This document shows, piece by piece, positions 716 through 61,811 of a stretch of DNA of 64,000 nucleotides (the stretch's first letter is position 1; every line of letters starts with the position of its first letter). The notes beneath the pieces were generated by a model that saw only the letters and a program-made list of their open reading frames with translations, was not told the origin of the DNA and did no database searches. Origin of the DNA: Deltaproteobacteria bacterium. Its GTDB lineage: Bacteria > Desulfobacterota > Binatia > Binatales > Binataceae. The stretch lies in NCBI GenBank assembly GCA_021794015.1, contig JAJYRQ010000001.1:39448-103447 (forward strand), written 5' to 3'. The position numbers and the translations under genes are program-made.

Positions 716-3667
716 ATGGCTGAGGGGCTGTCTCGACGGTCGTTCATCAAGCTGGCTGCCACCGCGTCGGTGGCGGCGTTGCCGGGGTGCGAGCCGGCCG
801 CGCGCAAGCTTATTCCGTACGTCGTACCGGACGATAACGTGATTCCGGGCGTGCCGGCCTTCTATGCAACGGTCTGTGCCGAGTGCAGTGCCGGATGCGG
901 CGTGGTGGCGCGCGTGCGCGAGGGACGAGTCGTCAAGCTGGAAGGCAACCCGGTCGATCCCATCAGCCAGGGAGCGCTTTGCGCACGCGGACAAGCCGCG
1001 CTGCAGGGACTTTACAACCCCGACCGACTGGGCGCCCCGATGCTGCGGCGCAAGGACGGAACGCTGGAAGCTGTCTCCTGGGACAAGGCGCTCGGTCTGC
1101 TCGACGAGCGGCTGCAGGCGGCGGCAAAAAAAGGCGCGAACCGCGTAGCTTATTTTGGCAGCCGGCAAGGCCCGACGCTCGACAAACTTGCCCGGCTCTG
1201 GCTTTCGGCCTGGGGTTCGAACCGGCTCATCGCCTACGAAGCGCTCAACGACGAGGCCGAACGGGCCGCAGCCAAAGCCTGTTTCGGGCGTACTGACCTG
1301 CCGGTCTACCGGATCGACCAGGCCGAAGCGTTGGTTTCATTTGGCGCCGATTTTCTCGAGACCTGGGGCTCGCCGGTGGAATACGCCCGCCAGTACGCGG
1401 CTTTCCGCGCACCGCGCCCGCTTCATGGCGGAACCGTCGTGGGCCGCTCCGCCTACGTTGGCCCACGCCTTAGCATGACCGCAGCCAAGTGCGACCAATG
1501 GGTTGCGGCCAGGCCGGGCACCGAGGGGCTGGTCGCGCTCGGCGTGCTCAATGTGCTGGTGAACCAAGGTTGGCTGCCTCATGACTCGGGAGTCGACCTC
1601 GAGGCGCTGCGCGGTTTGGTGGGCATGTATACGCCGGCTGCGATCGCCGGGCGCTGCGGCGTTGAGGCCAAGGCCATCGTCCGGCTGGGCGAGCTCTTCG
1701 GTCAGGCACACAGCGCGGTTGCGCTGGCCGGCACTGACGACCCAACCGCCCATATCGGCGCCTTGATCCTGAACACCGTTACCGGGAACCTCGGCCGCAC
1801 GGTGGTCTTTACCGACGCCGGCCCACCGCCCCCGCCGACCACCGGCCGGGCCGAGGTGGAAGCGCAAGTCGCCGCGATGAAGGCGGCCGAGGTGGATGTC
1901 GTCGTCGTGGCCGGCGCCAATCCGATCTACGCGATGCCGGCTTCGGCCGGGGTGGCCGAGGCGCTGGCCCGGGTGCCGTTGGTCGTCTGGATGGGCCAGG
2001 TCCCTGACGAGACGGCCGCTTATGCCGGCCTGCTGCTGCCGATCGACCATCCGCTGGAGAGCTGGCACGACGTGATGCCGCGGGCAGGTAACTACGGCCT
2101 GGGTCAGCCGGTGATGCAGCGGGTTTTTCCGACGATGGCGCTGGGCGATCTGCTCATCCGCTCGGCGCGGGCCGGAGGGCTCGGCCCCAAGGAACTTCCC
2201 TGGCAGGACGCTTCGCAGGCGGTTGCGGCGAGCTGGCAGGAGTTACGCGCTCGTTACCAGCCCTCGCAAAGCGCCGATGATTTCTGGACCTCGGTGCGCC
2301 GCCATGGCGGACTTTTCCTGCAGCCGGGTACGGCCGGCGTCAAGCTCGATCCGGCAGTGCTCAAGACCGCGCCCAATCTGCCCGAGCCGGCCGAGTTGGT
2401 ACTGGCCGCCTTCGCCCATCCCTTCTTCTTCGACGGGCGGGGAGCGGACAAGCCCTGGTTGCAGGAAATCCCGGAGCCGGTGACCCAGGTCGTATGGAAC
2501 AGTTGGGCCGAGATTCATCCCGAGACCGCGCGCCAGCTTGGGCTTACCGGCCGGGCCAGCCAGCTTTGGCTCTCGGCCGAGGTCGACGTTCTTGAGATCG
2601 CGTCGAGCCAGGGGCGCGTCGAGCTGCCGGTTTACATCGCCCAGACCGTGCGGCCGGGCGTGATCGCCGCACCGCTCGGACAGGGCCACAGCGCCTACGG
2701 GCGCTACGCCCGGGGGCGCGGCGCCAACCTGTTCCAGCTTTTGCCCGCCGGCGCGCTCAGCGTCGCGGTCAAGGCGCGGCCCACCGGAAAGAAGCAACGC
2801 CTGGTCTCGCCGCTCGGCAAAAGCGAAATGATGGGCCGCGCCCTCGTCGAGGCGATAAGTGTCGAGGAGCTCGCGCGCGGCGTGGCGCCGCGCCCCGAGG
2901 CGCCCGAGGCTCCCGAACCTCACGAGTTCTACGCCCCGTTCAAGTACCCCGTCCACCAGTGGGGCATGACGATCGACGTCAACGCCTGCACCGGATGCAG
3001 CGCCTGCGTGGCGGCCTGTTACGCCGAGAACAACGTGCCGGTGGTGGGAGAGGAAGGCGTCGAGCGCGGGCGAATCATGTCCTGGATCCGGATCGAGCGC
3101 TTTTTCCCGGCCCAGGAGAAGGCCGGCCACGCGCCTCTGCTCTACCTGATGCCGATGCTTTGCCAGCAGTGCGATCACGCGCCGTGCGAGCCGGTCTGCC
3201 CGGTTTTCGCCGCGGTCCATACCGAGGAAGGGCTCAACGGGCAGATTTACAACCGTTGCGTCGGGACCCGTTACTGCGAGAACAACTGCCCCTACAAGGT
3301 GCGCCGCTTCAACTGGTTTGCCCCCCAGTGGCCGGCGCCGCTGGATCTGCAGCTTAACCCCGACGTGACCGTGCGCGGCGCCGGCGTGATGGAGAAGTGC
3401 ACCTTCTGCTTCCAGCGCATCCGGCACGCCGAGATTACCGCCAAGCTGGAGAATCGGCCGGTGCGCGACGGCGAGATTGTCCCCGCCTGCGCTCAGAGCT
3501 GCCCCAGCAAAGCCATCAGCTTCGGAGACATGAATGAACCGCAAAGCGCCATGATGCGCCGGCGCGCCGACCACCGGCTGCGCAACTACGCGGCGCTTGC
3601 CGAACTGAACACGCGGCCGGCAATCACCTACCTGCGCGCGGTTTATCACGGGAAGGGGAAAGCCTAA
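716..3667 (+). CDS. actB: ACIII subunit ActB (fused B1/B2): molybdopterin-oxidoreductase-like domain plus 4Fe-4S ferredoxin domain, with a Tat signal
   Basis: 983 aa. N-terminal twin-arginine motif RRSFIKLAA. Multiple Cys clusters ([34 protein letters not shown]) typical of the NrfC/PsrB-like iron-sulfur domain. Size and operon position match ActB. Confidence 0.85.
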
Positions 3668-15944: not shown

Positions 15945-16750
15945 GAAGCTCAGCTCCGGATTCGCCCAAACATAGTAAGGTGTGCCAGCAAGCGATTTTC
16001 GTGCCGGATGGCCGCACTGATGTCGCGTGTCGTTCCGACTCGATACGATGGTGGCCGACTCTTATAAGCCGGAATTAGCGTTTTGACCCCTCCCCGTCAG
16101 CAGAATCATGCGGCAAATGTGCGCGCTAACGCAACTTTGTGGGGCGTCTGCCGCTGCACGCGCTTGGGTCTGCCGGCAAAGCGCTCGGTCCTATCGCTTT
16201 GCCGGCCTGAAACTGCGGTCTGGGCCACCTGGGGCGGTTTTCCACAGGCACCTCTGCGTCGGCAATCGGCGCGGCGCCTCTTTTGTTGTCATTCCCGCGC
16301 GCGTGTCGGGCGCGCGCGAGGAATCCCGAATCCGGGCTACGCCTGGGTCTGGCGTAGAGCCACAACGTTGCCGCAGCAGGCCGGCCAAGCTGTGTCCCTG
16401 CGCAGCTACGACGCTCACATCATGAATAGCCTCTGCCACACGCTCTGCAGCGGAGCAACCAACGACCTGGAACGCCGGGCTCGCCGGCAGAAACTCGGCG
16501 CCACAGGATCATTCACGGCGCGTTACAACGTCGAGCGCCTGTTCTCCGCCGAGCAGCGCCACGATGTCGGCGCAGCGATCGCCCGCGCGAGTGCGGACAA
16601 GCGGCTGAGCCGTACGGGCAAGCTCGCACTTATCGAATGGGCAAATCCTCAGTGGAACGACTTGGGCGGCGAATAGGACGAAGTTGCGGCAAGACCACAG
16701 CCGGGCAAAGCGCGAAGAGTGTTTGCAAAACCGGGAATCCTCGCACGGCA

Positions 16751-16843
16751 GGCCATTGCATGGCGGCAGGGACACGCGCCGCGCATCTTCGCATTGCGCT
16801 CCCGCTGGTCGGGCAAGCTGCCGTGCGGTCAGCACCGCGCGCG
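16751..16843 (+). repeat. Dispersed intergenic repeat, copy R1 (approx. 93 nt)
   Basis: 93/93 nt gap-free alignment with 60601-60693 at about 93% identity. Shares the internal hairpin GCCA-ttgca-TGGC, a duplicated CATTGC, and the TTGCGCTCCCGYTGGTCGGGC core with the tandem array at 23698-23895. Confidence 0.8.
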
Positions 16844-16930
16844 TGAATGACAAACAGGCCCGGGGCCGGGCAGAACCCGTGTAAGTATATTGTGCGGGAC
16901 TTAATAATGGAGCCGTTCCTCGGCAGACCG

Positions 16931-20937: not shown

Positions 20938-22104
20938 ATGCCCCTTAAGGATTACCTGTTCAGCTCGGAGTCGGTCTGCGAAGGTCATCCGGACAAAGTC
21001 TGCGACCAGATCTCGGACGCAATTCTGGACACGCTGATCGCGCAGGACCCGGACTCGCGCGTTGCCCTGGAAGCGCTCATAAAAACCGGGCTGGTCGTTC
21101 TGGCGGGGGAAATCACAACCCGCGCCAGGGTCGATTACGCCAGCGTTGCCCGCAAGACGATCTCCGATATCGGCTATACCAGCCTCGAGACCGGGTTTGA
21201 CGCCAATGCGTCTACTTTTGTGACCGCCATCGAACGACAGTCGCCCGACATCTCGCAGGGGGTCAACGTCGGCGGCGCGGGCGATCAGGGGTTGATGTTT
21301 GGCTTCGCCTGCGACGATACGCCGGAGCTGATGCCGCTGCCGATCTCGATTGCGCATCGGCTGATGCAGCGGCTGGGCGTGCTGCGCAGGCGGGGCGAGC
21401 TTGCTTTCCTGCGTCCGGACGGCAAGGGGCAGGTGACCGTGCGCTACGCCGGCGGCAAGCCGGTCGAGGTGACCGCGGTGGTCGTCTCGGTGCAGCACAG
21501 GCCTGAGGTCAGCCAGGCGAAAATTTACGAAGCCATCGTCGAGCAGGTGATTAAGCCGACGGTCGCCCCGGAGTTGCGCGGCCGTGACACCGTCTACCAC
21601 GTGAATCCGACCGGCAGCTTCGTGGTCGGCGGCCCGCAGGGTGATTGCGGGGTCACCGGGCGCAAGATCATCGTTGATACCTATGGCGGTTATGGGCGGC
21701 ACGGCGGCGGCGCCTTGTCGGGCAAGGACCCGACCAAGGTGGACCGCTCCGGATGCTACATGGCGCGCTACGCGGCCAAGAATGTGGTCGGCGCCGGCCT
21801 GGCAAAAAAATGCGAAATCCAGCTTGCCTATGCGATCGGCGTTGCCGAACCCGTTTCGGTGCTGGTCGATACCTTCGACACCGGGGTTTTGCCGGAAGGG
21901 GAGTTGGCCTCGGCGTTGCGCGAGCTTTTCGATTTCACCCCGACCGGGATGATAAAAACGCTCGAGCTCAAGCGGCCGATCTACCAGGCGACTGCGGCCT
22001 ACGGCCACTTCGGGCGCCCGCCGGAGAACGGCTTGTTCCCGTGGGAGCGCCTCGACATGGTGGGACCGCTGGCCCGCGCCCTTGGCTCCGACGGGCGTCC
22101 CTGA
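20938..22104 (+). CDS. metK: S-adenosylmethionine synthetase
   Basis: Full-length MetK with conserved motifs ([42 protein letters not shown]). Confidence 0.9.
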
Positions 22105-22306
22105 AGCTTAAGCGGGCCGGCAATCGGGGGCGCCCGGCGTCCTGAGCGCCGCAGCCGACTCGGGCGCGCACCGACGCCGGGTCTTCGACGGTACCGACCA
22201 GCCGCGCCAGCGCCGCTTGGGAGTGGGAGGTGCGCAGCCGATCGGCCGGCTCAGTCCGACACGATGGCCCGGTGCGGGCCTTTTTCTGCAAGGAGAGGAG
22301 CATCGA

Positions 22307-23611
22307 ATGGCAGTTAACGGGAGAAAAGTTGCGGATGCGCCCGCTCGGTTCGCTGGCGAGGGTGAGATCGCCGATCCGGGCCTGGCCGATGCAGGCTTTA
22401 GGCGTGTCGAGCGGACCGACGACGGGATGCCGGTGCTGCGTGCCATCCGCGCGCACTTCGAACGGGAAAAACCGCTGCAGGGTCAGCGCATCGGCGCCTG
22501 TCTCCACGTCACTGCCGAGACGGCCAATCTGCTGCGCGCCCTCAAGGCGGGCGGTGCCGCGGTCGCCTGCTGTGCTTCCAACCCGCTTTCCACCCAGGAC
22601 GACGTGGCCGCCGCGCTCGTCAAGAAGTACGCCATCCCGGTTTTCGCCGTCAGGGGCGAGGACCGCGACCGCTATTACGCCCATATGCGCGCCGTGCTCG
22701 AATCCCGCCCAACCCTGGTGATCGACGACGGCGCCGACCTGATAAGCCAGTTGCATACCGACTTTCGCGCCCAAGCCGGCCAGGTGCTCGGCGCCATGGA
22801 AGAGACCACCACCGGCGTTATTCGGCTGCGCGCCATGGAGCGCGACGGGGCGCTGGCCATGCCGGTGGTCGCGGTCAACGACGCTCAGACCAAGTACCTT
22901 TTTGACAACCGCTACGGCACCGGGCAATCGACCCTCGACGCCATCATGCGGGTCACCGATATGCTGATTGCCGGGTCGGTGTTCGTGGTCTGCGGCTACG
23001 GTTGGTGCGGCCGGGGTGTGGCGATGCGAGCGCGCGGCTTGGGCGCCCAGGTCGTTGTGACCGAGGTCGCGCCGTTGCGAGCACTGGAAGCGGCCCTGGA
23101 CGGATTCCAGGTGATGCCGATGCGGGCGGCGGCGCGCTTGGGCGACATCTTCACCACGGTGACCGGGGATCGAGGCGTTATCGGCGCTGCGCATTTCCCG
23201 CTGATGAAAGACGGCGCTGTGCTGGCCAACGCCGGTCATTTCGACGTCGAAATCGACGTGGCCGCATTGCGCAAAATGACGCGCAAGGTCGACCGGGACC
23301 CGGCGCGCGAGGCCGAGACCTTTCATCTGCCCAACGGCCGGCGCCTCCATCTTTTGGGCCAGGGACGGCTGGTCAACCTCGCCTGCGCCACGGGACACCC
23401 GCCCCAGGTGATGGACATGAGTTTTGCCACCCAGGCGCTGTCCGCCCAGTGGGTGGCGCGATCGTCGCGCCTGCCGTCCAAGGTGCATGAAGTGCCGGCC
23501 AATCTCGTTGAGCGCATTGCCGCGCTTAAGCTAAAAGCGATGGGCGTCAGGATAGACGCCCTGAGCGCCGAGCAGAAACGCTACCTGGCGAGCTGGCAGA
23601 GCGGCACCTAG
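22307..23611 (+). CDS. ahcY: Adenosylhomocysteinase
   Basis: SAHH family with an NAD-binding GYGWCGRG (GxGxxG) motif and a conserved N-terminal KVADAPARFAGEGEIADPGLADAGFRRVERTDDGMPVL region. Adjacent to metK (methyl cycle). Confidence 0.9.
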   Translation: MAVNGRKVADAPARFAGEGEIADPGLADAGFRRVERTDDGMPVLRAIRAHFEREKPLQGQRIGACLHVTAETANLLRALKAGGAAVACCASNPLSTQDDVAAALVKKYAIPVFAVRGEDRDRYYAHMRAVLESRPTLVIDDGADLISQLHTDFRAQAGQVLGAMEETTTGVIRLRAMERDGALAMPVVAVNDAQTKYLFDNRYGTGQSTLDAIMRVTDMLIAGSVFVVCGYGWCGRGVAMRARGLGAQVVVTEVAPLRALEAALDGFQVMPMRAAARLGDIFTTVTGDRGVIGAAHFPLMKDGAVLANAGHFDVEIDVAALRKMTRKVDRDPAREAETFHLPNGRRLHLLGQGRLVNLACATGHPPQVMDMSFATQALSAQWVARSSRLPSKVHEVPANLVERIAALKLKAMGVRIDALSAEQKRYLASWQSGT

Positions 23612-23697
23612 GGCGCGGTCCTGCCAATACACCCACCAAGCACAGGTTGCCACTCGGAGCGCCGGCCAAGAGTCTCGCCTCCGCCATCCCTTCGACT

Positions 23698-23895
23698 CTG
23701 GCCACTGCGTGGCGGCTGGATGGAGCGGCAAGCGACGCGGCGTTGCGCTCCCGTTGGTCGGGCGGGTTGGCCTGCGGGCGCCGACTGGCCACTGCGTGGC
23801 GGCTGGATGGAGCGGCAAGCGACGCGGCGTTGCGCTCCCGTTGGTCGGGCGAGTTGGCCTGCGGGCGCCGACTGGCCACTGCGTGGCGGGCGGCG
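23698..23895 (+). repeat. Tandem array (2.3 copies) of an 87-bp unit belonging to the same repeat family as R1/R2
   Basis: Units at 23698-23784 and 23785-23871 differ by 1 nt. A partial third unit runs 23872-23895. The unit contains GGCCAcugcgUGGC and GCGTTGCGCTCCCGTTGGTCGGGCG. Lies between the convergent genes ahcY and the TVP38/DedA gene. Confidence 0.85.
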
Positions 23896-23927
23896 CACCA
23901 ACCGTCCGCCCAGGAAGGCGGTTGCGC

Positions 23928-24597
23928 CTAGTCCTCCGGCTGCAGCACGGTGGGTTCGACCGCAGCCGGCCGCAAACGGCGCCATACCTCGCCCGCCGCG
24001 AAACAAGCCGCGATGAGCCCGAGGGCGAGCATGAAGCGCGGGGAGCCGGGATGCCACAGCGTGTCGCCCAGAAACGCGAACAGCACCGTGCCCGGGACCA
24101 TCCCCAGGGTGCTTGCCAGAAAGTAATCTCTGAACTCGATGGGCGAGGCTCCGGCCAAAAGATTAAGCGCGTTGTACGGAATCACCGGCACGATCCGCAG
24201 GTACAGGATTATCCGAAAGCCGTAGGCCGCAACCCTGTCGAGCAGGTTTTGGAACCTGGCCCCCACTACCCGGGTGACAAAGGAACGGCCCAGCGCCCGC
24301 CCGGCGCCGAACGCCACCAGGGCGCCGAGATTGGCGCCCACCAGCGCGTAAATCGCGCCCCGCCAGGCGCCGAAGGCAAGACCGCCCGCCAGCGTCATCA
24401 CCGCCCCGGGAACCAGGAACGACGGCCCCACGGCAAACAACGCTATGTACACCAGCGGCGCCCATACGCCAAAGGCCGCCAGTTCCAGCTTGACCCGCTC
24501 GGGGTTGTTGAACCACTCGCTGTGGGACCAAAAGAGATAGACCGAGCCTCCCGCCAGCGCAACCACAAACGCAAGCCTGACAACGCGACTTCGCATC
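23928..24597 (-). CDS. TVP38/TMEM64 (DedA-superfamily) membrane protein
   Basis: Conserved DedA/TVP38 core (VPGAVMTLAGGLAFG...RIVPVIPYNALNLLAGAS...). Start chosen at MRSRVVRLAF; the longer ORF may instead start at 24842. Confidence 0.65.
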
Positions 24598-41590: not shown

Positions 41591-41683
41591 GGAGAGGTGG
41601 CCGAGCCCGGTTTAAGGCGCACGCCTGGAGAGCGTGTAAACTCCAAAAGGGTTTCGGGGGTTCAAATCCCTCCCTCTCCGCCA
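41591..41683 (+). tRNA. tRNA-Ser (anticodon GGA)
   Basis: 93 nt. Acceptor stem GGAGAGG/CCTCTCC. Anticodon stem CACGC/GCGTG with loop CUGGAGA. Long variable arm. T-loop TTCAAAT. Encoded 3' CCA. Confidence 0.85.
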
Positions 41684-42579: not shown

Positions 42580-44601
42580 TCACGGCAGGCAGACCGACTG
42601 CCCCCGGGCGATGCAGGCCACGGTCGGCACCAGGACCGGCGCCGCCGCGCCGACGAATTCGGCCACAAGGTTGCCAAGGTTTGTCACCCAGACATTTCCT
42701 GAGGCGTCAATCGCAATCCCGGTCGGCTGCTTTAAGTCGTTGGTGCAGCTCTGCGTGACGCACTGGGTAAACCCGGTGGACGGCGAGAGCGCGGCGCCCG
42801 ACGGGCTAAGCTCCGTAATACTCTTGGGGCCGGGGAGGCTTGACCCGAAGTTCGCCACCCAGACGTTGCCCGATGAGTCAACCGCGATGCCGAACGGCGC
42901 GCTAAGGCCACCGCCGGAATAGGGAGAGCTGCCGACATTGTTGCCTGACGGGTCGATCTCGCTAACGTTGTTGCCGCTGAAGTTTGTCACCCAGGCGTTG
43001 CCCAGGGGGTCGATCGCGATCCCTTGGGGGTTGTTGAGCGTGCCCGCGGTGTAGCCGCAAGGGGTCGCGTTGCTGGCGCATCCCGAGCTCGGCGACAGAA
43101 AAGCGCCGCCGGGGCTGACCTCGGCGATCGTGCCGAGGCTCGAGTTCACGCCTGACGGGCTGTCATAGTTGGCAATCCACAGATTGCCCACCGCGTCGAG
43201 CGCGGGCGGGTTGGCATTGATAAATTCGTTGCTGCTCAACGTTAGTAGCGTGCTCCCGGACGAGTTGAGTTCGACGACGGAACTCGGGTTGCCAACGCCT
43301 ACGACCCAGACATTGCCCGAGGGCTCGATCGCGACTCCGCCCACGGAGACGGACACGGTGTAGCCGCTATTTCCTGAAAGCGGACTCCCGGAGGGGCTGA
43401 GCTTCATGACAGCGGTAGCGCCGCCGTCGCCGACCCAGGCATTGCCGAAGAGGTCGATAGCCAGCGCGGCCGGTCCGTTCAGCCCGCCGCTAAGGAAGCC
43501 AACGGAACCGGAGAGCGAGGCGCCCAGCGGGCTCAGCTTGGCGACACCGGCTCCGGTAATGGGGTTAGCGATCCAGGCGTTGCCGGAAGCGTCGATCGCG
43601 ATGCCTGATGGATGATCCAACCCGCCGCCGGTGTAGGTCAGCGCGACCGTCCATGCGTTGGGCGCGCTGCCCAGGGGCGGCGCGAAAGCGGGCGTTGCCG
43701 AAGTCAGGTTGAACAGCGCGACGACGTTGTTGGCGGGGTTGAGCGCGATCTCCAGCGCGGCGCTAAGGGTGTCCTGTGGCTGGGCCACGCCGCCAGGCAC
43801 GGTGCAGGGTGCGCTGTTGTTCGTGCCGGGAGTCGAGCCCGGAACTACGCAGCTAAACAGGTTCTGGCATGCGGTTGAGCTGCTCCCGTTTGAGTTCACA
43901 CAGTCCTGAAGAATATCGGCGATGGTATTGAGCTCGGCTGCCGGCGAAACCACCTCGGGCGCCAGCGAGGCGGGGGCCAACCCGGTGGCAACGTCCACCA
44001 GGTTGGCCACCAGGGCCATGGCGTTGGCCAGCCCGGTGGCGTTCGAGAACGGGGCGCCGATGTCCAGGATGCCGGTGGCGGCGGTCCGCATTACGACCGG
44101 CGGGCCGGCGGTCTGCGCTCGCGCGGTTACCGCGCCGCCCGAAGTATTGATAAAGCGCGCCAGCGCCCAGACCGAAGCGACGGTGGTCAGCTCGTTGATA
44201 TCCACGGAAAAGGTGTTGGGCAGGTTGGCGCAGTTGCCCAACGCGGCCAGCATCTGGAGCGCGCTGTTGGTTCCCGCGCCGGGGTTGCCCCCCTGCGCGG
44301 TGAGGTAGACCTGCACGCCCGAGTAGGGGCAGCTAAAGTTCAGGGCGAAATGGCCGGTGGAGTCGGTGGTGGTGACGGCAAGCGAGGTTGCGCCCTGGCC
44401 GTAGCCGCCTGTCCCGGCCTGCCAGAGGGTCACGGCGGAGCCCGAGACCGGGTTCTGCCCGCCATGAACCTGCCCGGCTATGGCGAGCGCGCTGCCGCCC
44501 GCCGCGCCTCCCGCGCCGCCGCATCCCGCCGCCAGCGTCAGCAACAGCGCAGCTCGCAGCGTGGCGGCTGCGGCTCGCAGCAGATGCTTGTGTTTATCCA
44601 T
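42580..44601 (-). CDS. NHL-repeat beta-propeller lipoprotein (paralogue 1)
   Basis: Lipoprotein signal (LTLAAGC). Carboxypeptidase-regulatory-like N-domain. Multiple NHL-type repeats (GIAIDASGNVWVAN...). RBS AGGGGGAAG upstream of the MDKHKH start. Confidence 0.7.
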   Translation of the reverse strand: MDKHKHLLRAAAATLRAALLLTLAAGCGGAGGAAGGSALAIAGQVHGGQNPVSGSAVTLWQAGTGGYGQGATSLAVTTTDSTGHFALNFSCPYSGVQVYLTAQGGNPGAGTNSALQMLAALGNCANLPNTFSVDINELTTVASVWALARFINTSGGAVTARAQTAGPPVVMRTAATGILDIGAPFSNATGLANAMALVANLVDVATGLAPASLAPEVVSPAAELNTIADILQDCVNSNGSSSTACQNLFSCVVPGSTPGTNNSAPCTVPGGVAQPQDTLSAALEIALNPANNVVALFNLTSATPAFAPPLGSAPNAWTVALTYTGGGLDHPSGIAIDASGNAWIANPITGAGVAKLSPLGASLSGSVGFLSGGLNGPAALAIDLFGNAWVGDGGATAVMKLSPSGSPLSGNSGYTVSVSVGGVAIEPSGNVWVVGVGNPSSVVELNSSGSTLLTLSSNEFINANPPALDAVGNLWIANYDSPSGVNSSLGTIAEVSPGGAFLSPSSGCASNATPCGYTAGTLNNPQGIAIDPLGNAWVTNFSGNNVSEIDPSGNNVGSSPYSGGGLSAPFGIAVDSSGNVWVANFGSSLPGPKSITELSPSGAALSPSTGFTQCVTQSCTNDLKQPTGIAIDASGNVWVTNLGNLVAEFVGAAAPVLVPTVACIARGQSVCLP

Positions 44602-44717
44602 TTTGCTTCCCCCTGAAGGCCGAATGCCTTCTTTGGTTCGTTCGACGGACCAAGCGCCGTCGGAATTCTCCGCCTGCGATTGCAATGACAAACGGAACCG
44701 CTTTTCCCACAGGCTGG

Positions 44718-47237
44718 TCATGGCGTGCGTCCCGAGGAACCCCCTAACGGCGCCGGGCGGCCGCGAAGGGCGGGCTCGGGCCTTTGCGGAGGCCCGATAA
44801 GCGGAGTCGTCACCGGGACCGCAATGCCAACGAATTCGGTTACGCTGTCGGCGGCGAAATTAGCCGCCCACAGGTTGCCGGAGCGGTCGATGGCCGGGTT
44901 GAAGGGCTCGCTCAGGCCCCCGCCGGTAAAGCCGCTTGAAGGCGAAAGCGGCGTGCCGGGCGAGCTCGCGCCGCGGCCCTCAAGCGCGCTGATGCTTGCG
45001 CCATGGTAGTTGGTGACCCAGACGTTGCCCCCGCCGTCGACGGCCACACCGCCCGGAGAGGCGAGTCCGCCGCCGGTGAAACCGCGCGCCGGGGAAAGCG
45101 CGGCGCCGTCGGGTCCCAGCTCGGTTACGCTGTCTCCGTAAAAGTTGGTCACCCAGACGTTGCCCGCCTGGTCGACCGCGATCGCCTGGGGAAGGTCGAG
45201 TCCGCCGCCGGTATAGCCCGAAGAAGGAGAGAGCGCCGCGCCGCCGGGCGTAAGCTCGGAAACGTTGTCGTTGCTCTGGTCGGCAATCCAGAGGCTGCCC
45301 GCGCTGTCGAAGGCAAGGCCGACGGGAAAGTTGATGCCGGCGCCGGTAAAGCCGCCCGAGGGCGAGAGTGCTGTCCCTGTGGGAGCGAGCTTGGTGACGC
45401 TCGCGTTGCCGTAGTTGGCTGCCCAGACATTGCCCGCGGGATCGATCGAAAGCGCAACCGGAAAGTCGATGCCGCCGCCCCAATAGCCGCTTGCGCCCGA
45501 AAGCACAGCGCCGTCCGGGGCAAGCTTCGTTACGCTGCCGAGCCCGGAATTTACCCCGGGCGGGCTCTGTTCATTGCTTACCCAGACGTTGCCCGTTGCA
45601 TCCAGTGCGATCGCGAACGACTCCTCGAGGCCGCCGCCGGTAAAGCCGCCCGCGGGCGAAAGGGGCAACCCCGCTCCGCTCAGCTCGCTGACGGCGCTGT
45701 TGTAGTTGGCGACCCAGACGTTGCCCGCGCCGTCTATCGCCACGCTCGTCGGCTCGCTCAGGCCGGCGCCGACGAAATTAAGCGCCAGCGTCCAGTCAGT
45801 GGGCGGCGCGCCCAGCACGGGGGAGAAGACGGTCGCTTTGCCGGCGAGCGTGAAAAGATCGGCGACATCGACCCGGCCCGGGTTGAGCGCAATCGCGAGG
45901 GCGGCCTTCAATGTGTCCGAAGGCTCGGCAGCGCCCGGCGGCAAGCTGCACGTTCCGGTGCTTGCATTGTAAACGCCGGCCGCCGCGTCGCAGAAAAGCT
46001 CGTTGCAGGGCGCCGGACCGGTCGCCGACGGGCCTGCGCTGCTGACGCACTGCGCCAGCGCGTTGGCCAGCGTGTTCAGTTTCTCCACCGGCGCGGTTGC
46101 TCCCGCAGGCAGGTTGCCCCCCGGCGCCGTGCCGGCGCCGAGACTCACCAGGTTTTGCACCGCGCCAAAGGTGTTCTCGAGACCAATCAGGTTCGCTGAG
46201 GAAGTCCCGACGGCCTGCGGATTCACCGCATCCATGAACTGCGCCAGCGCGTAGACCGAGGCGACCGTGGTCGCCTCGTCGATAACCACCGTGGCAGGCG
46301 GGCCGACCCTGATGCTGCCGCCGCACGGGCCCAGCGCCGCCATCAGCTTGAGCGCGGAGTTATTTCCATTGCCGTCGTTGCCGCCGCTCGCAACCAGGTA
46401 GACGTACGACGGCGGGCCGGTCGAAGGGCAGTCGAAGAAGAGCGAAAAGCCGCCGTTTGAGGCGGTCGCGGTCGAGGCAAGCGCCGTTGCCCCGGAACCG
46501 TAGGCGCTTGTACCGGCCTGGTAGGCGGTGACGAACGAATTTGCGACGGGGCCAGCACCGCTGCCGACTCCCGCGCCTCCCTGAACGGTGCCAGATACAC
46601 TCTGCGCCGCCGCCGCCGGCGCCAAGCCAGGGCGCGGCCTCGGCGTCCCCCGGGGAGTTGGCGTCGCCGTTGAAGTTGGTCGGGGCGTGGGAGTAGGCGT
46701 GGCCAGGGCCCTGGGCGTCGCCCTCGGCGTTGGCGTGGGGGCCGGCGCAGTAGGTGTCGGCGGTGTGGGCGTAGGGCTTACGCCTTGTCTCGGTGTCCGC
46801 CCGCCGGGCGGGCGCGCGTCGGTCGCTAGCGCAAACCCAGGGGGCAGCGCCGAGGCGGCTCCGGTGGTGCCGCGGCTGCCGCTATCTTCGGCGCCAAGAC
46901 CGCCAAGCTTCAGCCGGGTCGGTTCCTCGACGCTGGACGCCGGCAGCGACTGAACCGCGAAACCTGGCCGCGGCGCTGCGTGCGTAGCCGCTTCAACCGG
47001 AGTGTCGCCTGTGGCCGGCGCGCCGGTAAGTCGCCTCGAAGGTGCACCCGGGTCTTGCTCGCTCCGCGCCGGCCCGCGGATGGCGCTCCTCTGAGACGAC
47101 GCGCTGAGACCGCCGGTGCCGCCGCTGCCGCCTCCCTTGCATCCGGCGACAAGCAGCCAGGCAGCAAGTACGCAGACCCAGGGCCGGCCCCGAGCCTTTG
47201 ACCGGCGCTCACCTTGGCTGCTGCGAACCCGCCTCAT
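44718..47237 (-). CDS. NHL-repeat beta-propeller lipoprotein (paralogue 2) with a Pro/Thr-rich linker
   Basis: Lipobox LLVAGC. Long PT-rich linker (TPTPPTPTAPAPTPTPRATPR...). Repeats homologous to paralogue 1 (VAIDGAGNVWVANY...). Confidence 0.7.
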   Translation of the reverse strand: MRRVRSSQGERRSKARGRPWVCVLAAWLLVAGCKGGGSGGTGGLSASSQRSAIRGPARSEQDPGAPSRRLTGAPATGDTPVEAATHAAPRPGFAVQSLPASSVEEPTRLKLGGLGAEDSGSRGTTGAASALPPGFALATDARPPGGRTPRQGVSPTPTPPTPTAPAPTPTPRATPRALATPTPTPRPTSTATPTPRGTPRPRPGLAPAAAAQSVSGTVQGGAGVGSGAGPVANSFVTAYQAGTSAYGSGATALASTATASNGGFSLFFDCPSTGPPSYVYLVASGGNDGNGNNSALKLMAALGPCGGSIRVGPPATVVIDEATTVASVYALAQFMDAVNPQAVGTSSANLIGLENTFGAVQNLVSLGAGTAPGGNLPAGATAPVEKLNTLANALAQCVSSAGPSATGPAPCNELFCDAAAGVYNASTGTCSLPPGAAEPSDTLKAALAIALNPGRVDVADLFTLAGKATVFSPVLGAPPTDWTLALNFVGAGLSEPTSVAIDGAGNVWVANYNSAVSELSGAGLPLSPAGGFTGGGLEESFAIALDATGNVWVSNEQSPPGVNSGLGSVTKLAPDGAVLSGASGYWGGGIDFPVALSIDPAGNVWAANYGNASVTKLAPTGTALSPSGGFTGAGINFPVGLAFDSAGSLWIADQSNDNVSELTPGGAALSPSSGYTGGGLDLPQAIAVDQAGNVWVTNFYGDSVTELGPDGAALSPARGFTGGGLASPGGVAVDGGGNVWVTNYHGASISALEGRGASSPGTPLSPSSGFTGGGLSEPFNPAIDRSGNLWAANFAADSVTEFVGIAVPVTTPLIGPPQRPEPALRGRPAPLGGSSGRTP

Positions 47238-60267: not shown

Positions 60268-60600
60268 GGAGTCTTGGCAGCGCGGGACGTCCTTCCCTTT
60301 CTCCGCCGGCAGAGGGGGCGACAAGGATGCGGCCGGGACCTGCTCTTTGCTCCCTTTTTAGGGAGGGCTTATCTTATTGAGGATTGCATATTATAGCGAC
60401 AGTTTCATTCCTGCCGGGCTACTTTGGCGTGTCGTTCTCACGCGCAAAGGGTCCCTCGGCGGCCCTGAGCACGCCGAGGACGGCGGCTGGCGCGCCGGGA
60501 AGCTCGAGCTTTCGCCCGCGCCGCGCCGGCGCAGTCCGCGATTCCTCGCGCGCAGCCAGTGCCTGGCGCGGCAAGGCCCCGGGGCCCCTCGCGCGCGCCG

Positions 60601-60693
60601 GGCCATTGCATGGCGGCAGGCAGACGCGTCGCGCATCCCCGCATTGCGCTCCCGCTGGTCGAGCAAGCTGCCGTGCGGTCAGCACCGCGCGCG
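60601..60693 (+). repeat. Dispersed intergenic repeat, copy R2
   Basis: 93-nt gap-free match to 16751-16843 (6 mismatches). The flanking upstream GATTCCTCGCGCGCAG motif and the downstream AT-rich block are also shared. Confidence 0.8.
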
Positions 60694-60715
60694 GGGGTGA
60701 CAGAGACGGGGGGCC

Positions 60716-60796
60716 CTCTTTTCCTCTCCCTCTCCGCCGGCGGGGGAGAGGATCGAGGCGCCGCCCTGAGCGGAGCGCAAGCGGAGTCGAAGGGAG
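60716..60796 (+). repeat. GC-rich hairpin repeat (family E2), copy b
   Basis: CCTCTCCCTCTCC-gccggcggg-GGAGAGG hairpin plus CCCTGAGCGGAGCGCAAGCGGAGTCGAAGGG, related to 42411-42480. A shorter relative is at 60290-60320. Confidence 0.55.
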
Positions 60797-60875
60797 ACGC
60801 ACCGCGCGTGGCAATGACGGAACGACGCGCGACCGAGCGGAAGCTGCGTAACTATATTGTGCAGTATTGAATAGT

Positions 60876-61811
60876 ATGGCAATGGCCTTGAGATTTGGGT
60901 GGCGCAAAGGCAGGCATTCGCGCAGCAGGGGCGCCGTCGAGGTCGGGGAGCCGAGCGCCGGCTACCGCGGCAGCCGGTTGTTCGGCGGGCTTAGGACCGG
61001 CAGCGGGCAGACCGATCTGTATCACTTTCTGCTTGCCTCGCCATGGCCGGTGCTTCTGCTCATGGGTGGCGCGGCGCTGGTGGTGGTGAACAGCCTCTTT
61101 GCCCTGGCCTATATGCTGAGCCGGGGGCTGGAGGCGGCGCAGCCGTTGTCCTTTGTCGATGTCTTTCTTTTCAGCGTGCAGACGATGGCCACCGTCGGCT
61201 CGAGTCAGGCGGTGGCGCGCACGGTGATGGCCAACGCGCTGGTCGGCCTGGAAGCGACTACGGGTTTCTGCGTTCTGGCGATTGCCACGGCGGTTTCGTT
61301 TGCCCGCATTTCGCGGCCCACGGCGCGGGTGCGTTTCAGCAGGGTAGCGGTGGTTAGCCAGCGCGACGGCGCGCCGGCGCTCTGGTTTCGCATGGCCAAT
61401 GTGCGCGGCAATCGCATCGTCGAGGCGCAGGTCCGGCTGATGCTGGCGCGGTGGGAAACGACGGCCGAGGGCGAGCCGCTGCGCCGGCTTTACGACCTGG
61501 CGTTGGTGCGCGACCGCACGGCGTTGTTTGCGCTGAGTTGGTCGGTGTTTCATCGGCTGGACGGCGACAGCCCGCTGTGCAACGCCACACCTCAGACGCT
61601 TTTGGCCGGCAAGGCGCTAATCGTCGTTTCGGTCACCGGGATCGACGAGACTTTCATGCAAACGGTGCATGCGCGCCACGTTTACCGCCCGCAGGAGGTC
61701 ATCTTCGGCGCGCGCCTGGCCGACATCTTAAGCGAGAGCGTAGAGGGACGGCTGCTGGTTGACTATGCGCGCTTCGACGAAGTGATTGTTCTGCCTGAAG
61801 GAGCGCAATGA
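60876..61811 (+). CDS. KirBac-like inward-rectifier K+ channel homologue with a degenerate selectivity filter
   Basis: Kir architecture: a two-TM pore domain (LLMGGAALVVVNSLFALAYML...FSVQTMATVGSS) plus an IRK C-terminal beta-rich domain (FARISRPTARVRFSRVAVV...MANVRGN). The canonical T-I/V-G-Y-G is replaced by TVGSS. Start ambiguous (TTG 60867 or ATG 60876). Confidence 0.65.
   Translation: MAMALRFGWRKGRHSRSRGAVEVGEPSAGYRGSRLFGGLRTGSGQTDLYHFLLASPWPVLLLMGGAALVVVNSLFALAYMLSRGLEAAQPLSFVDVFLFSVQTMATVGSSQAVARTVMANALVGLEATTGFCVLAIATAVSFARISRPTARVRFSRVAVVSQRDGAPALWFRMANVRGNRIVEAQVRLMLARWETTAEGEPLRRLYDLALVRDRTALFALSWSVFHRLDGDSPLCNATPQTLLAGKALIVVSVTGIDETFMQTVHARHVYRPQEVIFGARLADILSESVEGRLLVDYARFDEVIVLPEGAQ

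Follow-up and report, generated by a model that had tools for sequence, protein, structure and literature searches.

We found that the tandem array between the convergent genes ahcY and dedA is best read as a passenger VNTR, in which one module of a dispersed repeat family drifts in copy number by slippage; we give this reading a probability of about 0.75. The repeated unit is a member of a dispersed, modular, non-coding family of intergenic repeats that was previously undescribed. Its copy-number variation is real and ongoing, because one, two or three units are found on several SNP backgrounds whose sampled flanks are ~99.9% identical. The array reveals no new mechanism, and it matters as a clean natural case of copy-number variation of a repeat module within the population of one uncultured soil lineage, probably Candidatus Binatia.

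Across the window (i.e., the whole 64,000-nucleotide stretch that was analysed), Tandem Repeats Finder (TRF) reported one strong tandem array, at 23698-23889, with a period of 87, 2.2 copies, 99% matches and a score of 377. A pattern search of the same DNA found two full 87-nt units lying head-to-tail with one mismatch, where none is expected in shuffled sequence. The tandem duplication claimed in the original prediction was thus confirmed, while its extent (2.3 copies, 23698-23895) had to be reduced to 2.2 copies ending at 23889, an overshoot of 6 nt. Unit 1 (23698-23784, + strand; TRF, and a pattern match with one mismatch to the consensus) and unit 2 (23785-23871, + strand; TRF and pattern search) differ at unit position 68, which is G in the first (23765) and A in the second (23852), and this is the single G/A difference that had been reported. 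Downstream of them lies a partial third unit (23872-23889, + strand), an 18-nt direct repeat, CTGGCCACTGCGTGGCGG, that corresponds to the first 18 nt of the unit. The array is not a CRISPR, as had also been claimed, because the units adjoin directly without spacers and the entire 87-nt period is repeated.

Each copy of the unit, including the partial one, carries the 5' hairpin HP1 (GCCAC-TGC-GTGGC), located on the + strand at 23701-23713, 23788-23800 and 23875-23887. Folded as single-stranded DNA, the 18-nt repeat forms exactly this hairpin (-4.4 kcal/mol, z -2.0). The two full units also contain a conserved box, TTGCGCTCCCGTTGGTCG (23743-23760 and 23830-23847, + strand), which holds a small hairpin, CCCG-YUGGU-CGGG. 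Directly 5' of the array is the motif CCCTTCGAC (23688-23696, + strand), which also precedes the sole other member of the same type (hereafter T-type), L037; enrichment of this motif in the window is marginal (4 matches versus 0.94 expected), as is that of a relaxed version of the box. On the 3' side, a unique GC-rich hairpin, GGCGGGCGG / CCGUCCGCC (23883-23911, + strand), overlaps the last bases of the partial unit.

Pfam matches confirmed the flanks, and with them the claim that the array sits between the 3' ends of ahcY and a DedA-like gene. S-adenosylhomocysteine hydrolase (AhcY, 434 aa; PF05221/PF00670) is encoded at 22307-23611 on the + strand, with its stop 86 nt before the array, and a VTT/DedA (TVP38/TMEM64) family membrane protein (PF09335) is encoded at 23928-24596 on the - strand, with its stop 38 nt past the array, so that the spacer measures 316 nt from stop to stop. 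The best ahcY start is the ATG at 22307, behind GGAGAGGAG, and the exact AhcY product is present on many contigs. Upstream of ahcY is metK (20938-22104, + strand; Pfam), and the two are separated by a leader of ~200 nt (22105-22306); no SAM or SAH riboswitch was detected anywhere in the window at the Rfam gathering threshold. At that threshold the whole window gave no Rfam match except tRNA-Ser(GGA) (41591-41683, + strand), the sole RNA gene detected in it, and permissive Rfam searches of the array and of the dispersed copy C (see below) returned only chance-level matches. A literature search on the box, the hairpin and the associated motifs found no relevant paper. The largest direct-repeat families of the window lie elsewhere, in two adjacent large genes (42580-47237, - strand; 713 and 839 aa) with NHL/beta-propeller repeats of 135-nt period, and are ordinary coding repeats.

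The array unit is not confined to this locus. The module that defines the family consists of HP1 in the general form GCCAY-TGC-RTGGC, a variable middle and the conserved 3' box TTGCGCTCCCGYTGGTCG, which is exact in all family copies. HP1 has six matches in the window and the box five, versus 0.37 expected for each; one of the five box matches (3568-3585, - strand) has three mismatches and is not a family copy. The prediction had assigned the array to an "R-family", and this membership was right: related copies with the exact 18-nt box and the 5' hairpin lie at about 16731-16852 (copy A, + strand), between an ORF for a 94-aa hypothetical protein (+) and class-I lysS (-), and at about 60586-60704 (copy C, + strand), which follows a MocR-like gene (+) and precedes one for a Kir-like channel (+). 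Direct-repeat analysis showed that copies A and C are 89% identical to one another and ~60% identical to the tandem unit. In both, HP1 reads GCCAT-TGC-ATGGC, a compensatory change from C-G to U-A. Genome and metagenome scans added further close members, namely L051, L037 and four copies on contig JAEHJW020009951.1 (L106 and L107), as well as L059, which is the orthologue of copy C (98.6% identical); the one metagenome scan, run with an extended box pattern, yielded three stretches from two contigs. The local densities (three loci in the 64-kb window and four in ~17 kb of the JAEHJW02 contig) suggest, by extrapolation, that each genome has roughly a hundred copies or more.

Family copies come in more than one architecture. 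Copies such as A and C (A-type) are bounded by GC-rich terminal inverted repeats of the form CCCC-CGCGCGCG ... CGCGCGCG-GGGG, and these termini are of two kinds, X (TCTGTCACCCCCGCGCG) and Y (CCGGGRCCCCTCGCGCG), found in the combinations Y..X', X..Y' and Y..Y'; this mosaic recalls BIME or BOX elements. The T-type unit of the array and L037 have no X or Y termini and are preceded by CCCTTCGAC instead. The array and copy A are placed between convergent genes, and copy C and two of the JAEHJW02 copies (L107a and L107b) between unidirectional ones, with none clearly between divergent genes. With respect to the transcription around them, the copies face both ways, copy C and L107b being sense and L107a antisense. 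Six short-read contigs with identical LysRS all end at 16814, inside copy A, and breakage of short-read contigs inside copies is typical of multi-copy repeats. The family thus fragments short-read assemblies of these uncultured soil genomes, and a profile built from the known copies would improve intergenic annotation in such MAGs.

Several neighbouring features were seen alongside these copies. In a third copy on the JAEHJW02 contig (L107c; L107:3290-3440, + strand), the loop of the box hairpin (CCCGTTGG^TCGGG) is split by a perfect 33-nt palindrome, CCTGCCTGCGCCGCGCCCGGCGCGGCAGGCAGG, with the stem left intact; the palindrome represents either the insertion of a second, nested palindromic element or an expansion of the structure. 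Beside a family copy on the same contig, ~4 kb (L107:3256-7175) contain no ORF with gene-like GC3 periodicity. Just past copy C in the window (60714-60810) lies a hairpin, CCTCTCCCTCTCCGCCGGCGGGGGAGAGG, whose - strand reads TCCCTTCGACTCCGCTTGCGCTCCGCTCAGG, that is, CCCTTCGAC fused to a box-like TTGCGCTCC without the internal hairpins; this is possibly a minimal relative of the family, on a short-motif enrichment that is only marginal in the window. L059, which bears the label 'Acidobacteria bacterium YP4.bin42', matches window positions 60357-60935 at 98.6% identity, and beyond L059:580 the similarity is wholly lost. This break, ~230 nt upstream of copy C, marks the edge of an island, a rearrangement specific to the strain or chimerism of the contig. 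NCBI assigns L059 to Acidobacteria and L051 to Proteobacteria, and both phylum labels look unreliable, since those relatives of the window's DedA-like protein that have been named belong to Candidatus Binataceae.

The original prediction held that the duplication was very recent, with copy number perhaps still varying, and proposed a comparison of array length among populations or metagenomes. We ran this comparison on eight contigs from independent assemblies, the window included, which were found by exact-product look-up of AhcY, the DedA-like protein and MetK in ENA, NCBI and JGI assemblies, all of them metagenomic. Contigs with identical AhcY or MetK hold one, two or three units, so that near-identical strains carry three array lengths, which bears out both recency and ongoing variation. 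The distance from the ahcY stop to the dedA stop is 229, 316 or 403 nt, successive lengths differing by exactly 87 nt, and the flanks of L100-L103 are ~99.9% identical to the window. One unit (229 nt, with G at position 68) is present in L100 (ERZ27237490), L103 (ERZ27237177) and L125 (ERZ27237285). Two units (316 nt; G, A) are present in the window, L101 (GCA_027402935.1), L104 (GCA_023475445.1) and L129 (GCA_027403035.1). Three units (403 nt; G, G, A) are present in L102/L105/L130 (JGI 3300039716), a count that comes from one assembly in which some 141-mers are repeated within the array, so that the true number is three or more. In all three alleles, that with a single unit among them, the last unit is followed by the 18-nt partial unit. 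The SNP at 23690 in the flank (C or G) is shared by one- and two-unit arrays, and one- and three-unit arrays share a CC/CT variant where the first unit begins. Because these variants cross allele lengths, copy number must have changed repeatedly, or the alleles recombine. The array therefore combines tandem units with strain-level copy-number polymorphism, as a VNTR or minisatellite does, and the ahcY/dedA spacer could serve as a strain marker.

Could the duplication, or its variation among strains, be the mis-assembly of a repeat? Every allele record derives from metagenome assemblies, and Logan contigs break both inside copy A and inside the array (one short-read contig, L127, at 23860). However, the two-unit form occurs in four independent records and the one-unit form in three ENA assemblies. 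The sequences themselves argue in the same direction. In the one-unit allele only 105 nt separate the unique flanks, which single 150-nt reads would span; in the two-unit allele every 141-mer is unique (the array, at 192 nt, is shorter than 87 + 141) and the G/A SNP should mark the units; and neither the G-G adjacency of the three-unit allele nor the G beside the 3' flank in the one-unit allele should be derivable from a G,A genome. Given this agreement among independent assemblies and the k-mer logic, an artefact, which the prediction had named among the results that would overturn it, appears largely ruled out, and we regard it as barely credible. Even less tenable, and effectively refuted, is a protein-coding repeat of 29 codons (87 nt) within a small unannotated gene. 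The period is divisible by three and no stop interrupts any of the six frames within the spacer, but open frames are expected at 66% GC. The spacer ORFs have GC1/2/3 of ~0.68/0.75/0.78, versus 0.65-0.71/0.47-0.49/0.80-0.82 in the neighbouring genes, and thus lack the GC3 periodicity of coding DNA. Gene callers placed no gene in the spacer in any fetched contig. The compensatory changes in the hairpin likewise point to nucleic-acid structure. We conclude that the array is non-coding, because its ORFs lack the codon-position GC pattern of their neighbours and no gene is called there.

The rivals that assign the array a role in RNA have more to recommend them. Foremost is a functional element in the overlapping 3' UTRs, in which transcribed units would form stem-loops that bring about termination without a U-tract or, as has been suggested for REPs, protect ahcY/dedA mRNA from 3' exonucleases, with copy number tuning expression; such a REP-like effect is the main rival to the passenger reading, with which it is not mutually exclusive. 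The original prediction favoured a related role, as a bidirectional terminator or mRNA-stability element, and the searches gave it no support. A consensus scan of 23300-24300 for sigma-70 promoters and intrinsic terminators placed none in the spacer, neither the units (on either strand) nor the hairpin at 23883-23911 are followed by a T-run, and the spacer thus lacks the combination of GC-rich hairpin and U-tract that marks an intrinsic terminator. Nor do the units fold better than shuffles. Compared with dinucleotide shuffles, a single unit has z-scores of +0.9 to +1.2 as RNA and +0.6 to +1.3 as DNA, and none of the whole spacer, the units and copies A and C beats shuffles on either strand (z -0.3 to +1.5 for units and copies). 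The one unusually stable structure of the spacer is the hairpin at 23883-23911 (-27.2 kcal/mol, z -2.47, with 3 of 200 shuffles as good), and on these predicted energies any shared 3'-end structure would most likely be this one. By eye, the hairpin region had some resemblance to a sigma-54 promoter and to an integron attC site, and both were rejected on misfitting spacing and core sites.

Comparison among family members also bears on the RNA readings. RNAalifold, applied to nine distinct members, predicted a long-range helix in which a 5' arm, GGCCAUUGCAUGGCGGCAGGG, pairs with an arm of the box, CCCGCUGGUCGGGCAAGCUGCC, a model in which each module becomes one long, imperfect palindrome whose tip varies. 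In this model 90.2% of cells pair, versus 36-55% in slid controls; in a model with local hairpins instead (HP1, CCCG-YUGGU-CGGG in the box and one further hairpin on the 3' side) 90.3% pair, versus 28-46%. Compensatory changes link Y26 with R30 and with R88, and the SNP between units 1 and 2 keeps a G.U or A-U pair. Covariation is not decisive between the two models, because the nine members are few and very similar and both models are ~90% paired. A 3'-UTR element is further favoured by an absolute folding energy of ~-40 kcal/mol per unit, by the position between convergent stops, which matches the concentration of REP elements there (PMC3733652), and by the fact that the spacer is without the canonical terminator present in a related genus (L124, below). 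Against it stand the unremarkable folding of the units (z +0.9 to +1.3), the terminator scan, the occurrence of copies both sense and antisense to flanking genes, the separate and significantly stable hairpin already 3' of the array, and the coexistence of one- to three-unit alleles, which argues against a tight functional requirement. We therefore consider this element unlikely. Very unlikely, in our judgement, is an array of small-RNA genes or a novel structured ncRNA, with one RNA per unit. The conserved hairpin and box with some covariation, the recurrence of the pair in MAGs labelled Acidobacteria (9 of the 100 box sites listed have the hairpin upstream, versus 0.18 expected) and the exact nesting of the L107c palindrome in the box loop, where it preserves the stem, would all fit it; it is opposed by the lack of a promoter-like site, of a terminator for each unit and of any Rfam match, by z-scores near zero or positive, by mixed orientation relative to neighbouring genes and by freely varying copy number.

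The orthologous locus in related genera, where the DedA protein is ~70% identical and some genomes are named Candidatus Binataceae, keeps the convergent dedA/ahcY arrangement. Their spacers contain no family element and are too diverged to align, and ~150 kb of fetched DNA from these genera held no family copy. In L124 (4518-4640) the spacer is only 123 nt long, without a repeat, and carries a canonical intrinsic terminator with a 12-bp GC stem, GCGGGCGGGCAT-CATCG-ATGTCCGCCCGC, followed by TTTTCTTT. Because the element is missing from the orthologous spacer and from the fetched DNA of these genera, it would have been inserted into this 3' intergenic region in one lineage. Copies A, C and T are present in every close strain, and whole elements showed no presence/absence polymorphism among these strains; no target-site duplication was recognised and no associated transposase was found, and mobility of the element is suggested by its dispersal only.

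How might a passenger VNTR have arisen here? The module sits between the ahcY stop and a GC-rich hairpin that would have been there before it. The simplest allele has the form HP1 - 69 nt - HP1, so that a single module is already bracketed by an 18-nt, hairpin-forming direct repeat, and repeats so placed classically give rise to slipped-strand mispairing or unequal crossover. Units would then be added and removed by replication slippage or unequal recombination, acting at first between the direct repeats and later between whole units, and after the first duplication the 87-nt homology would ease further gain and loss. A parsimonious history may run from one unit (G) to two (G,G), then through a G-to-A change in the distal unit, to three (G,G,A). 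The array would be tolerated because the region between the convergent stops is presumably under weak constraint, and any effect on the 3' ends of ahcY or dedA would be incidental rather than the reason for the array's existence. Elements of this kind seem prone to tandem growth, since looser relatives (L013, L014 and L038) also have arrays of hairpin and box. The compensatory changes in the hairpin, and the box stem kept around the L107c insertion, hint at selection on structure, and this counts against a purely neutral model, which does not require that structure be preserved.

By analogy, the closest counterparts of the array are the BOX elements of pneumococci and the REP/BIME repeats. BOX elements of Streptococcus pneumoniae (boxA-boxB(n)-boxC) are dispersed, modular and non-coding, with one module in tandem and variable among strains; any transcript of them is predicted to fold into stem-loops, they lie preferentially downstream of genes, and their copy-number variation is the basis of pneumococcal MLVA typing (PMC3049150; PMC1315331). 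The family described here is likewise a modular mosaic (HP1, variable middle, box, X/Y termini) in which one module ranges from one to three copies between near-identical strains. Unlike BOX, where the 45-nt internal boxB repeats, here the entire module of hairpin and box does so, and the terminal inverted repeats of BOX elements and of copies A and C are missing from the tandem locus. The likeness is one of architecture only, an analogy, as sequence homology is not expected across phyla.

REP elements are high-density extragenic repeats with a conserved short hairpin, located mainly between convergent or co-directional genes, for which termination, mRNA stabilisation or neutrality have been proposed as roles, and which are defined by a GTAG/CGTC tag and a palindromic unit of 20-40 bp (PMC3733652). 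The present copies share the extragenic location between convergent or unidirectional ORFs. They differ in that none of 10 members has GTAG/CTAC, while CGTC/GACG is inconsistent (missing in copy A and L107b) and never adjacent to the hairpin, and in that the unit is 87 nt (T-type) or ~115-120 nt (A-type), with only the 13-nt HP1 as a simple palindrome. The array is thus not REP by definition. It differs from BIMEs and REPINs as well, because its units are direct and head-to-tail rather than inverted, and all three loci of the window are on the + strand. MITEs such as Correia, ERIC and RUP are similar in being ~100-120 nt long, non-coding and dispersed, in the terminal inverted repeats of the A-type copies and in the element's absence from orthologous sites in related genera; the T-type unit, however, has no inverted termini, and neither a target-site duplication nor a strain-level empty site was seen. 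To our knowledge, the family has no parent IS. Like bacterial VNTRs and minisatellites, the array consists of near-identical tandem units whose number varies among strains by slippage or unequal crossover, but its unit belongs to a dispersed family and is not locus-specific.

The only part of these results with wider potential is the recurrence of the 18-nt box, often with a similar hairpin and in head-to-tail arrays, in distant phyla. A genome scan with the 18-mer covered 596 Gb, where ~70 chance matches are expected, and the matches listed were mostly chance ones in coding DNA; matches within conserved or repeated elements are multiplied. Even so, an HP1-like hairpin lies 30-50 nt upstream of the box in the nine sites counted above, drawn from the 100 box-selected sites listed, and seven of the nine, among the matches listed, are in MAGs labelled Acidobacteria. 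Looser versions of the pair occur, again among the matches listed, in two Tunturiibacter isolate genomes. Motifs like the box are present, too, in repeats of other phyla that look unrelated to the family. The exact 18-mer was also listed in Verrucomicrobiota (L033, L079), in L035/L082 and in a conserved element of at least six Oscillospiraceae species (L036, L061, L069, L081, L087, L098). A Bacteroidaceae rumen MAG (L008:4512-5094) has an 85-nt tandem array of 6.9 copies (87% matches) whose unit holds a near-copy of the box, GGGGTTGCGCTCCCTTTGGTCGCTCCACCCC. At the gathering threshold, Rfam gave no match for 12 related loci, among them L036, L061, L008, L033, L035 and L082.

Much of the recurrence of the box in other phyla may be chance, while the association with Acidobacteria is not, and could be due to common descent, to horizontal spread or to convergence on a site for a host factor. 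One might go further and take hairpin and box together (CCAY-TGC-RTGG ... TTGCGCTCCCGYTGGTCG) as more than a selfish repeat of one lineage, namely as a conserved cross-phylum motif for recognition or structure, the substrate of a mobilising or processing enzyme or the mark of a new class of structured RNA, with array formation intrinsic to its propagation. This reading would span Binatia-like MAGs, MAGs labelled Acidobacteria and the Tunturiibacter isolates, and possibly Bacteroidaceae, Oscillospiraceae and Verrucomicrobiota; we think it quite improbable. Modules related to that of the array are found as head-to-tail arrays and as single copies in six loci labelled Acidobacteria (L013, L014, L038, L048, L050 and L054), where a GCATTGCATGC or CCACTGCGTGG hairpin is followed by a variable hairpin and then by TTGCGCTCCCGTTGGTCGCGGG. 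In L013, three diverged modules lie head-to-tail on the - strand at 99-nt spacing, with boxes at 1625, 1724 and 1823.
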